In this document: piece after piece, positions 16,448 to 18,622 of the stretch
Layout: each line of letters opens with the position of its first letter
Position numbering within the stretch: the stretch's first letter is position 1
Origin: Gammaproteobacteria bacterium
Lineage (GTDB): Bacteria; Pseudomonadota; Gammaproteobacteria; UBA6186; Azoamicaceae
Direction of reading: 5' to 3'
Assembly: GCA_035443705.1 (NCBI GenBank)
Contig: DAORSV010000001.1
Span: forward strand, 1 to 57,151
Length of the DNA stretch: 57,151 nt
Translations under genes and position numbers: made by a program
Notes under the pieces: generated by a model
Told to the model about the DNA's origin: nothing
Seen by the model: only the letters and a program-made list of their open reading frames with translations
The model's database searches: none

Positions 16448-18622
16448 TTAATTAAGTTTATTTTCCTTGGAAAACATATTGAAAAATTCACACAATTGAT
16501 AATACAACCAACCACCAGCTTGCCGATTATTTAAGGACTGCAATTCTCGTATTGCAGCAGGATAACTGATACGCATCGTAATTAAATCTTCATAAATCTG
16601 ATTTGCTTTTTTGCGCCGTTTGACAGCATCCCCAACATCCAGAAATCCCTCGATAGATAGTATTACTTTTTCAAACCATGCAGGTCCTTTCAATATCGCT
16701 TCTATTTTTTGACGAATTTGAGACAAGCTGTTATTCAAATTCGATTGAATCAATATCAATTCGGCCTGAAATCTTTCTTGCTGCATAATCGGCATTTCAG
16801 ACATTTTCTCGATCGTTTCACGAACCAGCTCTTCGCATAATTGATTATATGACTTAAACGTAATAGCAGACTGAAGCAGTTCTTCTAAATTTGAAGAATC
16901 TACATGACTCAACGCGTTAAAAATTTGATAACACATGTCCCATGATTGAAAACAGTGCACAATAGCTAAACCAACGCCTTTCATGTTCTGCATACCATGC
17001 ATTCGGTTATAAAAACCAGGCGGTGTTTCATCGCAAATAATATTTATCACTTGATCGCCTGTTACATACAAATCATCAATAACCACAAATTTTTTTAAAA
17101 ACCATTCTGTCAGAATGTTTCGAAATTCATTATTTAAGCATTCTCTCGAATCAAACGATAAATTAATTCGATTACACAGCTCTTTTATTTTATGATAAAT
17201 ATCCAAATCTTGTTCTAAATGCTTAATAACAGAATCAAAGTAAGGCACTTTATTTGCTTTTAACTGTTCACGAAGAATCTCTGGATTATCATAGTTTTTT
17301 AAATAAACATCAACCAAATCTTCTGCAATATTTTGCCCCTTCAGCATCACACGCAGCCGTTCAATAATAACCTGTTCAGTAATTGGCATCCTAAATCGGA
17401 AAGCGAAATCATTCAAATCTTTTGCAATATTGTTTAGTGGAACTTTTTCAGATTCTGGACACAAGGTTATTTCTCGCACAGCTTCTCGCCAAAATTCTTG
17501 CACGTAATTCATAAATTCATGTACATTTGAGCCCACAATAAAATGCCGATCTGCAGAAATATCGTTAACCAAAATATTCGAAAACACATGAGAACGTTCC
17601 ACACGATCGGCGCGATTATTGACAACAGTCGTTATCCAAACCCCAGGTTCTTTTAAGATATCTTGTTCTGAAAAACCTAAGCGCATCCAATTGCTTAAAC
17701 ATCCATAGCGTTCATTAGCAGACATACCGTTAATAAATTCTAGTCGACGACTACGCATAGGCGCTGCGGGATAAATTTTTAAAGCACCGATGTCTGGGAT
17801 CATATAATCGGCCATTTCTTTTAATGCCACGTCCTTTTCGATACCGAGCTCCTCTGCTAAAGCAAGGGCCAAAACAATATTATCAGGATGCTCTTGATAA
17901 GGAAAACGTGCTAATACATCTTGTGTTAAAAGACCGGCAGTTAACCAATTAACCGATTTAAATTTTGTATTTAATTTCTGGGAGCGCATCTTTAAAATAG
18001 GTCGCATTTGTTCTTCAGCCGTTAATAAAACTGAATTAACGGGAATAAAGCTAGCTATGACATTGGCAATATTAATGCCTGCGGGTCCTTGTAAATTTTC
18101 ATGATCAGGGAAAGCATTTGTAATCGTCGAAATATCATCATACATCCATTTTTGTTGTAATAACTTAACATTATTCTCCTCTAAAGCCATACATTCCCAG
18201 AGTAAAACATCTACTTGCAGTTTGGAGGCTAAATGTACAAAATTATATTGTTCCCAAATAGTCGCTTTATCATGCGGTCGAAACAGACTGAGTTCATACA
18301 ATTTTCCATAAGCGCGCCCATGCAAAAACATCGCTTCACAACCCGTTGTTTTGCTTAAAACACTTAACCCCATCGCATTAAATAACGCCGACTTTAATCT
18401 TTCGGTGCCGGATTTTCCGCGCGTTCCCCATCCACCAATTGTCAGTGAAATTGTAGACCGGGCTTGACGCAGCGTTCGATTTAAATAGAGATGTCTTCCA
18501 AGAAAAAAAATAATCGAAATCAAAACCAAAAAACCTAGCTCTAAAAATGTATTTTCATATACTGAGAAAAAATAATCCTCTAAGCGAAGCCACCAAACGT
18601 ACAAAGCATCAGATGAAATCAT
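16448..18622 (-). CDS. PgsB/CapB-like amide ligase (Mur-ligase fold) with an N-terminal TM and a C-terminal extension of about 320 aa
   Basis: TM (FLELGFLVLISIIFFLG), then motifs collinear with Bacillus PgsB as I recall it. These are the P-loop GGWGTRGKSGT, SKTTGCEA, WECMAL, NAFPDHENLQGP, HPDNIVLALALAEELGI, FINGMSANE and VNNRADRVERS. Residues from about 400 to 724 have no counterpart in PgsB. Confidence 0.8.
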   Translation of the reverse strand: MISSDALYVWWLRLEDYFFSVYENTFLELGFLVLISIIFFLGRHLYLNRTLRQARSTISLTIGGWGTRGKSGTERLKSALFNAMGLSVLSKTTGCEAMFLHGRAYGKLYELSLFRPHDKATIWEQYNFVHLASKLQVDVLLWECMALEENNVKLLQQKWMYDDISTITNAFPDHENLQGPAGINIANVIASFIPVNSVLLTAEEQMRPILKMRSQKLNTKFKSVNWLTAGLLTQDVLARFPYQEHPDNIVLALALAEELGIEKDVALKEMADYMIPDIGALKIYPAAPMRSRRLEFINGMSANERYGCLSNWMRLGFSEQDILKEPGVWITTVVNNRADRVERSHVFSNILVNDISADRHFIVGSNVHEFMNYVQEFWREAVREITLCPESEKVPLNNIAKDLNDFAFRFRMPITEQVIIERLRVMLKGQNIAEDLVDVYLKNYDNPEILREQLKANKVPYFDSVIKHLEQDLDIYHKIKELCNRINLSFDSRECLNNEFRNILTEWFLKKFVVIDDLYVTGDQVINIICDETPPGFYNRMHGMQNMKGVGLAIVHCFQSWDMCYQIFNALSHVDSSNLEELLQSAITFKSYNQLCEELVRETIEKMSEMPIMQQERFQAELILIQSNLNNSLSQIRQKIEAILKGPAWFEKVILSIEGFLDVGDAVKRRKKANQIYEDLITMRISYPAAIRELQSLNNRQAGGWLYYQLCEFFNMFSKENKLN

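Follow-up and report, generated by a model that had tools for sequence, protein, structure and literature searches.

The DNA considered here is a stretch of 57,151 nucleotides (nt) from a gammaproteobacterium of the family Azoamicaceae (assembly GCA_035443705.1, contig DAORSV010000001.1, positions 1 to 57,151), and this whole stretch is called the window below. It carries a cassette of seven minus-strand genes, running from position 34273 down to 16448, whose last gene encodes an unusually long ligase of the PgsB/CapB type, referred to as PgsB-long. The order of the genes is CHASE2 sensor, CapC-long, 826-amino-acid (aa) protein, 299-aa protein (p299), 1651-aa protein, HEAT-repeat protein and PgsB-long, and the consecutive junctions are -4, -16, -20, +3, -22 and -4 nt, the first of them being a 4-nt overlap of the CHASE2 sensor gene with the gene of CapC-long. 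We consider it probable, from sequence homology, that PgsB-long is the catalytic ATP-dependent amide ligase of this cassette, and that the cassette is the counterpart, in diderm bacteria, of PgsBCA of Bacillus, i.e. an envelope-spanning system for synthesis and export of a poly-gamma-glutamate-like polymer. Scans for promoters and terminators around the ends of the cassette gave results at the level of chance. The genes of the cassette are as follows.

32180..34273, minus strand: CHASE2 membrane sensor, 697 aa, the first gene of the cassette (PF05226, E 7e-15).
28938..32183, minus strand: CapC-long, 1081 aa, two CapC/PgsC membrane modules and a C-terminal region of ~720 aa (PF14102).
26473..28953, minus strand: 826-aa protein, an N-terminal signal-anchor helix (transmembrane segment at aa 7-25, Kyte-Doolittle value 2.93) and a large extracytoplasmic body.
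25593..26492, minus strand: p299, a putative secreted zinc-amidohydrolase-like protein with a signal peptide and a fold like that of M14 enzymes and N-formylglutamate amidohydrolase (FGase), assigned from an AlphaFold2 (AF2) model and Foldseek.
20634..25589, minus strand: 1651-aa secreted protein with a signal peptide (N-terminal hydrophobic signal) and no recognised fold.
18619..20655, minus strand: HEAT-repeat protein, 678 aa, with a highly conserved C-terminal domain at aa ~500-678 (ATGA overlap, profile matches).
16448..18622, minus strand: PgsB-long, 724 aa, Mur-type amide ligase of the PgsB/CapB clade (TIGR04012, AF2 model, homologues).

The open reading frame (ORF) of PgsB-long lies on the minus strand, and the plus strand of 16448-18622 is dense with stop codons. 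The first-pass annotation, made from the letters of the sequence, had listed seven PgsB motifs in this protein, and all of them were found in the same order as claimed: GTRGKSGT (aa 66-73), KTTGCEA (91-97), ECMAL (143-147), NAFPDH (169-174), HPDNIVLALALAEELGI (245-261), NGMSANE (298-304) and NNRADRVERS (335-344). A match of all seven is far beyond chance. The patterns specific to PgsB, namely KTTG, ECM, NxxxDHxDxxGP (169-180), NGxxAN and NxRxDRVxR, also follow each other in order. Among 44 relatives the P-loop (G66-T73) is invariant, with G66, R68, G69, K70 and S71 in it, and the same is true for E143, N169, D173, H174, N303 and for N335, N336, R337, D339, R340 and R343. The doubling of length relative to PgsB, pointed out earlier, holds as well (724 aa versus 394 aa in PgsB of B. 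thuringiensis). Along the protein, the following segments may be distinguished.

18455..18622, minus strand: aa 1-56, membrane-associating segment, an amphipathic helix and then a hydrophobic one (AF2 helices 4-21 and 26-56).
17471..18454, minus strand: aa 57-384, ATP-binding ligase core and most of the C-domain, alpha/beta, with all PgsB motifs.
17093..17470, minus strand: aa ~385-510, variable all-helical insertion of ~125 aa, 95-143 aa in relatives (AF2 helices 396-510).
16955..17092, minus strand: aa ~511-556, conserved beta-alpha-beta element with the invariant GxQNxKGxGL (AF2 strands 512-514 and 538-544, helix 522-532).
16451..16954, minus strand: aa 557-724, helical C-terminal tail of ~165 aa (AF2 helices).

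The assignment of this ligase to the PgsB/CapB type, and not to FolC or the Mur enzymes, is borne out by several comparisons. A scan of NCBIfam gave a match to TIGR04012 (PgsB) with an E value of 2.3e-58 and 197.8 bits, covering aa 32-392 and profile positions 2-347 of 380; it was the sole NCBIfam match, even when the N-terminal 395 aa were searched and E values up to 10 were admitted, and no match was found in Pfam. Reference ligases were taken from annotated records (CapB of B. anthracis from pXO2, PgsB of B. thuringiensis and two PgsB proteins of Streptomyces), with MurC, MurD, MurE, MurF and FolC of E. coli for comparison. In phmmer searches PgsB-long scored 95-111 bits against the four PgsB/CapB proteins (E 2e-35 for B. 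anthracis CapB, to which it is ~26% identical) and negatively against the five E. coli enzymes. The profile of the family, built from the 44 relatives, reached 127-163 bits against PgsB/CapB, and its scores against E. coli MurC-F and FolC were again negative. In this comparison by hidden Markov models, which had been set beforehand as the refuting test of the assignment, the ligase groups with PgsB/CapB, and by these scores PgsB-long is a divergent member of that clade.

An AF2 model built with the 44 relatives (predicted local distance difference test, pLDDT, 87.4; predicted TM-score, pTM, 0.84) was compared by Foldseek with structures in the PDB, and the matches, with E values from 1e-8 to 1e-6, were to folylpolyglutamate synthase (1o5z, E 1.4e-8), MurC, CphA1 and MurE/F. 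As modelled, PgsB-long has the fold of the Mur-ligase superfamily, with a P-loop ATP-binding domain followed by a Rossmann-like C-domain. Sequence searches of the PDB chains with the single protein or the family profile brought up no PgsB-like sequence. Like PgsB/CapB of Bacillus, PgsB-long combines a Mur-type core, a P-loop of the form GxRGKS, the KTTG/ECM/NxxxDH/NGxxAN/NxRxDRVxR order and an N-terminal hydrophobic helix, and it would work with a CapC-type membrane protein. Unlike them, it has 724 aa instead of ~390, an insertion of ~125 aa in the C-domain and a tail of ~165 aa, it is normally fused to an N-terminal HEAT domain of ~680 aa, and there is no adjacent pgsC-pgsA-pgsE. It therefore departs from the form by which PgsB/CapB is recognised, a stand-alone protein of ~390 aa anchored by one N-terminal transmembrane segment. 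Nor does the locus show the pgsB-pgsC-pgsA(-pgsE) adjacency, as the CapC-type gene lies 10 kb upstream in the form of a 1081-aa fusion.

A membrane anchor had been proposed for the N-terminus of PgsB-long. The proposal stands as far as a single, moderately hydrophobic helix is concerned (aa ~26-47; Kyte-Doolittle maximum 1.67), which is homologous to the N-terminal helix of PgsB and aligns with the start of the PgsB profile, but this helix is perhaps not a simple single-pass anchor. In relatives in which the HEAT protein and the ligase are fused, it is internal, lying between the two, and it is the sole hydrophobic segment. Both the ligase and the HEAT protein, which lacks a signal peptide, are predicted to reside in the cytoplasm. 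An ordinary N-out single-pass anchor of the kind assumed for PgsB of Bacillus would be a misfit, because the HEAT domain is devoid of an export signal and the ligase needs ATP. More likely, the helix is re-entrant, interfacial or buried against CapC.

The C-terminal half of PgsB-long had been described as helical and unrecognisable, and as one extra domain of 320 aa appended to the ligase. The former two properties were found again: the structure prediction that the first-pass annotation had called for is confident and helical in this part, and no Pfam match and no PDB sequence match was obtained with it. The extension is also, as had been supposed, a conserved feature of the whole family. Since 516 homologues align over 96-98% of the length of PgsB-long, with 40-50% identity, the C-terminal half is no local accident. 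What had to be abandoned is the picture of a single appended domain, in place of which there are three parts, i.e. the helical insertion, the beta-alpha-beta element and the helical tail.

These parts differ in conservation. The core (aa 57-384) has a mean conservation of 0.73, with 127 of its 328 columns conserved at >=90%, and the corresponding values are 0.37 and a single column for the insertion (aa ~385-510), and 0.69 and 15 of 46 columns for aa ~511-556, where G536, Q545, N546, K548, G549, G551 and L552 are invariant. The helical tail gave no PDB or Pfam match over aa 557-724; its first portion (aa 557-645) has a mean conservation of 0.46 and two columns at >=90%, and its last helices (aa 646-710, FLDxGDAVKRRK...GGWL) have 0.62 and 15 such columns. 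From the order of secondary-structure elements in the model, the beta-alpha-beta element of aa 511-556 appears to complete the C-domain of the Mur ligase, and we propose that it supplies the amino-acid-binding side with the last strand and loop. Canonical PgsB/CapB proteins end with ...NRIVYGVGNIHGAAEPL, and the last strand of E. coli MurC ends with ...LVQGAGNIGK, so that the tails of both MurC and PgsB show a G-x-G-N-I pattern; PgsB-long has ...NRMHGMQNMKGVGL at aa 539-552. In structures of MurD, the loop after the last strand of the C-domain contacts the incoming D-glutamate, and the tail of E. coli MurD has Ser-Leu...Phe at this loop.

If aa 379-506 are deleted, the TIGR04012 alignment of the resulting chimera reaches positions 2-378 of 380, with a gain of 2.6 bits. 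About the same gain, 3 bits, was obtained with a control chimera (aa 378 joined to aa 581), whose alignment extended to position 361, so that such an insertion in the C-domain is not proven statistically. The C-terminus of CapB ('NRIVYGVGNIHGA') finds its best local alignment exactly at aa 511-556, which is not significant alone, and the C-terminal 72 aa of CapB, compared with the family profile, rank 6th of 201 against shuffles. In hhalign, a shallow alignment of four PgsB sequences did not bridge the insertion when aligned with the family.

PgsB-long is not confined to the window. At least 586 confirmed matches were obtained among GTDB species genomes (one genome per species), and the carriers among the matches listed belong to Gamma-, Beta-, Alpha- and Zetaproteobacteria, Desulfobacterota, Nitrospirota, Planctomycetota and Verrucomicrobiota. 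When 1.8 billion cluster representatives were searched exhaustively, 1676 clusters (50% identity) were obtained at E <=1e-3, and 480 at <=1e-30. Nitrifiers, methanotrophs, iron oxidisers, giant sulfur bacteria, Competibacter, lucinid symbionts and Planctomycetota are among the carrier groups, and cultured carriers include Azoarcus sp. CIB, Methylovulum miyakonense HT12, Desulfocicer vacuolatum and several species of Halomonas/Vreelandella, such as Vreelandella massiliensis and Halomonas daqiaonensis.

In these organisms the ligase is tightly linked to the HEAT protein. The earlier description of the neighbour as a HEAT-like protein whose gene shares an ATGA overlap with the start of the ligase gene was right, apart from its length, which is 678 and not 670 aa; their coupling was confirmed by the related loci. 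HEAT-like sequence lies directly upstream of the ligase in 83 of 84 ligase-encoding loci (80 of the 84 came from the scan of one genome per GTDB species). Both form one ORF in 77 of 83 related loci, full-length in 63 (1360-1520 aa) and cut by the contig end in 14, and the remaining loci have either a split arrangement (4 of 83) or another gene order (2 of 83). Of the best 150 cluster representatives, nearly all are 1350-1450 aa long and carry the ligase in their C-terminal half. The HEAT protein and PgsB-long are one functional unit, and the window contains a rare split form of a protein of ~1400 aa. A frameshift artefact as the source of the split was ruled out, as the identical 4-nt overlap is present in a 73%-identical relative and in a complete Arenicellales chromosome. 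In two related loci, L059 and L077, no HEAT sequence precedes the ligase.

The HEAT repeats of the window protein are below threshold when it is scanned alone (HEAT_2, 18.2 bits), one relative reaching 32.1 bits versus the gathering cut-off of 27.7. The profile of the family matches alphaRep (2e-15), PP2A-A and AP-2 beta over aa ~227-453, and by these profile matches HEAT repeats are confirmed at the family level. The C-terminal ~180 aa of this protein (aa ~500-678, window 18619-19150) are more conserved than the repeats, with ~25 invariant positions, many of them charged, including W513, R514, E518, K526, R527, H532, R536, E551, PGEP558-561 and RNW630-632. This domain, which gave no match in Pfam, NCBIfam or PDB, could be catalytic or ligand-binding.

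The linkage extends to the remaining genes. The ligase is always found with the HEAT protein, nearly always with the secreted 299-, 826- and 1651-aa proteins, and with CapC-long and the CHASE2 sensor wherever the flanks reach. By tblastn over all fetched loci, the 1651-aa protein was detected in 63, the 826-aa protein in 54 and the 299-aa protein in 51 loci, numbers limited mainly by the reach of contigs. Loci centred on CapC-long have the order sensor, (response regulator), CapC-long, ~830 aa, ~300 aa and ~1900 aa. The order is permuted in some loci of Desulfobacteraceae, Parabeggiatoa and Thiomargarita (L059, L077, L023, L039), in which the CHASE2 sensor follows the ligase, and in L059 CapC-long comes after the sensor.

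CapC-long matches PF14102 in two stretches (E 3.2e-40, 137.7 bits versus the gathering cut-off of 27), and it has more than 1368 homologues, nearly all of ~1080 aa. Searches of the PDB with its sequence and with the family profile gave nothing useful. It consists of the following parts.

31089..32183, minus strand: aa 1-365, ~12 hydrophobic segments forming two CapC modules (Pfam, family-averaged hydropathy).
30264..30992, minus strand: aa ~398-640, first p299-like domain, with the catalytic histidines replaced (hhalign).
29334..30170, minus strand: aa ~672-950, second p299-like domain, degenerate (hhalign).

When aligned by hhalign, the p299 family matched the first domain with a probability of 97.8% (E 1e-12) and the second with 97.4% (E 1e-11), and the two domains matched each other with 99.5% (E 2e-22). 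Histidines are lost in both, PH being changed to PA or PR, and HG to RG or RA; judging by these replacements, the two domains are catalytically inactivated. If the C-terminal 720 aa are placed outside the cytoplasm, all loops rich in lysine and arginine fall on one side of the membrane, and we infer that this region is periplasmic, which agrees with p299 being secreted. The N-terminal 365 aa are alike PgsC/CapC of Bacillus in matching the CapC family, twice; unlike the 149-aa CapC, CapC-long has tandem modules and ~720 additional aa, with two apparently inactivated amidohydrolase-like domains.

The AF2 model of p299 was obtained from an alignment of 17 sequences (pLDDT 88.5). Foldseek matched it, in the PDB, to the putative metallopeptidases 2qvp, 3ieh and 3b2y, to 2odf of the N-formylglutamate amidohydrolase family, and also to carboxypeptidase A1, AstE (succinylglutamate desuccinylase) and MpaA, with E values from 8e-7 to 3e-4 across the matches and moderate TM-scores (0.35-0.47). 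A viral structure library gave matches of FGase, carboxypeptidase and amidase type. Invariant in the family are PH124, D128, T131, R154, D166, QxHG195-196, ELGG, N255, FxHxE269-273 and R279; they include H124, D128, H195, H271 and E273, a candidate metal site, so that both the fold and the ligands of M14/FGase-like enzymes are found. Based on the model, p299 is predicted to be a secreted zinc amidohydrolase. It resembles hydrolases of the MpaA, AstE and PghP class in the fold and in the His/Asp/His plus His-x-Glu set, and differs from them in that its sequence matches none of the Pfam or PDB families significantly (nor was there a relevant match in PHROG) and in that its two paralogous copies in CapC-long have lost the histidines. 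Many enzymes with a fold of this type cut N-acyl-glutamate or gamma-glutamyl amide bonds. A specific link between p299 and PghP was considered and could not be established, as one of 33 members matches PF05908 (Gamma_PGA_hydro) with E 0.096, and PghP was not among the top Foldseek matches.

The 826-aa and 1651-aa proteins gave no match in Pfam, NCBIfam or PDB, even when family profiles were compared with the PDB, and no porin similarity was detected for the latter. Homologues of the CHASE2 sensor adjoin the cassette in eight loci and have 890-917 aa, with weak matches to PAS and HisKA. Such longer sensors are encoded at L005:948-3620, L006:53-2794 and L059:5997-8732, and the window copy, which is without a recognised output domain, may lack the kinase end. 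The CHASE2 sensor gene of Azoarcus sp. CIB is followed by one for a response regulator.

A separate problem is the absence of PgsA/CapA, to which the first-pass annotation had drawn attention. Indeed, PGA_cap (PF09587) is missing from all 30 large ORFs of the window, neither PGA_cap nor CapE was found in it, and tblastn with B. anthracis CapA against the window gave nothing (E > 3). On the other hand, a PGA_cap gene (4e-44 to 9e-48) occurs directly downstream of the fused ligase in three of 69 related loci with at least 1.5 kb of downstream sequence, namely in Ca. Competibacter denitrificans, one metagenome-assembled genome (MAG) of Competibacteraceae and one of Methylococcaceae. These CapA-like genes lie at L058:12171-14342, L037:12430-15012 and L043 ~12460-13480, and encode proteins of 720-860 aa; the two that were scanned are unusually long, with CarboxypepD_reg N-terminal to the PGA_cap domain. 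Through the PGA_cap genes in these three relatives, the cassette is linked to chemistry of the poly-gamma-glutamate type, and PgsA is seen to be an optional accessory, rather than a component supplanted by the extension of the ligase. CapA has already been treated as non-essential in some bacteria (PMC5542703).

How the cassette might work can be proposed as follows. At the cytoplasmic face of the membrane, the ligase core would activate the gamma-carboxylate at the chain end as an acyl-phosphate and add glutamate or a close analogue, with the beta-alpha-beta element of aa 511-556 completing the C-domain pocket for the incoming amino acid. Scaffold or regulatory surfaces, by which the enzyme is docked on the cytoplasmic loops of a pseudo-dimer formed by the tandem CapC modules, might be provided by the HEAT solenoid together with the helical insertion and the conserved helices of the C-terminus. 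The tandem-CapC protein would move the nascent chain across the membrane, its two dead amidohydrolase-like domains could hold or guide the chain in the periplasm, and p299 might trim or release it. The 826-aa and 1651-aa proteins would carry the chain across the envelope, and the CHASE2 sensor would control the system.

Such a mechanism recalls the Bcs, Pga and Alg systems, in which an inner-membrane synthase is coupled to translocation and a periplasmic hydrolase-like enzyme is present (compare BcsZ, PgaB and AlgL); the cassette likewise has large periplasmic or outer components and an operon-encoded membrane sensor. It differs from these systems in that its polymerase would be an ATP-dependent amide ligase instead of a glycosyltransferase, and in that it has no conserved porin with tetratricopeptide repeats (TPR) and a beta-barrel, the TPR protein encoded nearby being specific to the window. 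It is quite possible, if slightly doubtful, that we deal with a new class of synthase-dependent secretion machine in diderms, with a PgsB-type ligase scaffolded by HEAT repeats, export by tandem CapC, dead amidase domains, orphan giant proteins and, possibly, a non-classical polymer.

Downstream of the cassette, the window contains genes of another kind.

14944-16335, minus strand: membrane glycosyltransferase of family 2 (GT2), weakly PgaC/NodC-like (Pfam and NCBIfam).
12054-14930, minus strand: TPR protein, 958 aa, with weak matches to the TPR regions of PgaA and BcsC (Pfam and NCBIfam).
11056-12057, plus strand: NAD-dependent sugar epimerase/dehydratase, tail-to-tail with the TPR gene.

A gap of 112 nt separates the ligase gene from that of GT2. 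Membership of GT2 and the TPR protein in the cassette was rejected, as elsewhere we found only a weak GT2-like match on the opposite strand (L083) and no TPR match. In the 73%-identical relative both are absent, and the cassette is followed by tig, clpP and clpX. Together with the epimerase, they look like a separate module for a synthase-dependent exopolysaccharide, which stands beside the cassette only in the window.

Several points weigh against the proposed poly-gamma-glutamate-like function of the cassette. The polymer is deduced from homology alone. The score of PgsB-long lies below the equivalog cut-off of TIGR04012 (197.8 versus 222.7 bits) and that of CapC-long below the cut-off of TIGR04011 (PgsC; 64.2 versus 96.45 bits), and because both proteins fall under these curated limits, the substrate could differ. 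The periplasmic placement of the C-terminal region of CapC-long comes from the positive-inside rule applied by hand. For the 826-aa and 1651-aa proteins no homologue of known function could be detected, and profile searches found no outer-membrane channel. In two MAGs of Alphaproteobacteria/Dongiaceae (L046 and L048) the ~1700-aa secreted protein of the 1651-aa type is missing. Finally, no published description of the long form, and no experiment on it or on any member of the cassette, was found in the full-text literature. As to the gene arrangement in L046 and L048, CapC-long, a shorter 826-like gene and a 299-like gene run straight into the HEAT-ligase fusion.

One may suppose, then, that the enzymology is the same and the product is other than expected: the chain might consist of another amino acid, the polyamide might be mixed or amidated, or glutamyl residues might be built up on a lipid, glycan or protein acceptor. 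Besides the scores just mentioned, this explanation could draw on the low identity to CapB (only ~26%), on the putative amino-acid-binding loop, which reads GxQNxKG in PgsB-long versus GVGNIHG in PgsB, and on the accessory proteins, all of which are unlike those of Bacillus. The glycosylated polyglutamine wall of some haloarchaea may be taken as a model, and GT2 of the window, which adjoins the cassette together with the epimerase, might glycosylate the chain; however, practically none of the other loci has GT2 or the TPR protein, and the closest relative lacks them too. Moreover, all PgsB-specific motifs are kept and invariant, in three relatives a gene for CapA (PGA_cap) adjoins the cassette, and the fold of p299 is typical, as far as specificities are generally known, of enzymes cutting N-acyl or gamma-glutamyl amide bonds. 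We therefore regard a different product as rather unlikely, though deserving serious consideration, and a poly-gamma-glutamate-like polymer as the probable one.

It had also been suggested that PgsA/CapA, missing here, is replaced in its function by the extension of the ligase or by the HEAT protein. Both are conserved and obligatorily linked to the ligase, and PGA_cap is absent from the window, as this idea would predict. PgsA, however, is membrane-anchored, with its bulk outside the cytoplasm, whereas no signal peptide is present in the HEAT protein, and the need for ATP confines the ligase to the cytoplasm. Furthermore, part of the extension would be core ligase structure and not an added module, and a PGA_cap gene can directly follow the ligase gene even in relatives that possess the extension as well as the HEAT domain. 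We thus find such a replacement very unlikely. The cassette supplies several predicted extracytoplasmic proteins better suited to a PgsA-like position, and the 720-aa C-terminal region of CapC-long, the anchored 826-aa protein and the secreted p299 are the better candidates. The 826-aa protein shares with PgsA/CapA the gross topology of an N-terminal anchor and a large extracytoplasmic body; in sequence, the extracytoplasmic proteins of the cassette are unrelated to it.

That the product is an intracellular store of nitrogen or carbon, a cyanophycin-like use of polyglutamate without export, is scarcely probable: CapB and CapC, enriched in some Thiodiazotropha symbionts of lucinids, were tabulated under 'storage compounds' in correlation with nitrogen ecology (PMC11168628), and free-living chemolithotrophs, methanotrophs and symbionts make up most of the carriers, but that label is at the level of annotation only, four of the seven conserved proteins are integral to the membrane or carry export signals, one being a secreted hydrolase-like protein, and in the known system the homologues of CapC act in translocation at the membrane.

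Some further genes of the window deserve mention. Its housekeeping proteins have matches solely among MAG entries, the source being an uncultured gammaproteobacterium. An 800-aa dCache-GGDEF-EAL protein, of the type that acts in cyclic di-GMP (c-di-GMP) turnover, is encoded at 970-3372 on the minus strand, ~30 kb from the cassette, and no c-di-GMP receptor was identified among the cassette proteins. A 513-aa ankyrin-repeat protein (36390-37931, plus strand; Ank_2, 3.7e-57) is unusual for free-living bacteria, and together with the G+C content of ~37% it may point to a gammaproteobacterium associated with a host or with amoebae. An ORF of 405 aa at 9352-10569 on the plus strand has no Pfam match and is called as a gene on the source contig too.

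In databases, the proteins of the cassette bear the names 'hypothetical protein', 'PgsB/CapB' and 'PgsC/CapC', and Pfam and NCBIfam hold no models for the C-terminal domain of the HEAT protein or for the 299-, 826- and 1651-aa families. The occurrence of CapB in Gammaproteobacteria was noted in a phylogeny of the Mur family (PMC11915815). The 'PGA capsule' (poly-gamma-glutamate) call of CapsuleFinder requires only CapB and CapC (PMC5542703), and capsule surveys with this requirement would probably score the cassette as an ordinary capsule of that kind. What is known is the chemistry of PgsB/PgsC-type synthases; what is new is a different architecture with a different accessory set, which is widespread.

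Synthesis of poly-gamma-glutamate is understood almost entirely from pgsBCAE of Bacillus, and the cassette may bear on how such a polymer would be moved across the two membranes of Gram-negative bacteria. The fusion of the HEAT domain with the ligase, a case of the Rosetta-stone principle, and the tandem arrangement of CapC define which proteins act together and in what stoichiometry, and the conserved periplasmic partners could explain export without PgsA. The existence of cultured carriers allows these proposals to be tested directly. If they are true, an extracellular polyamide in the carriers would matter for the biology of biofilms, flocs and symbioses.

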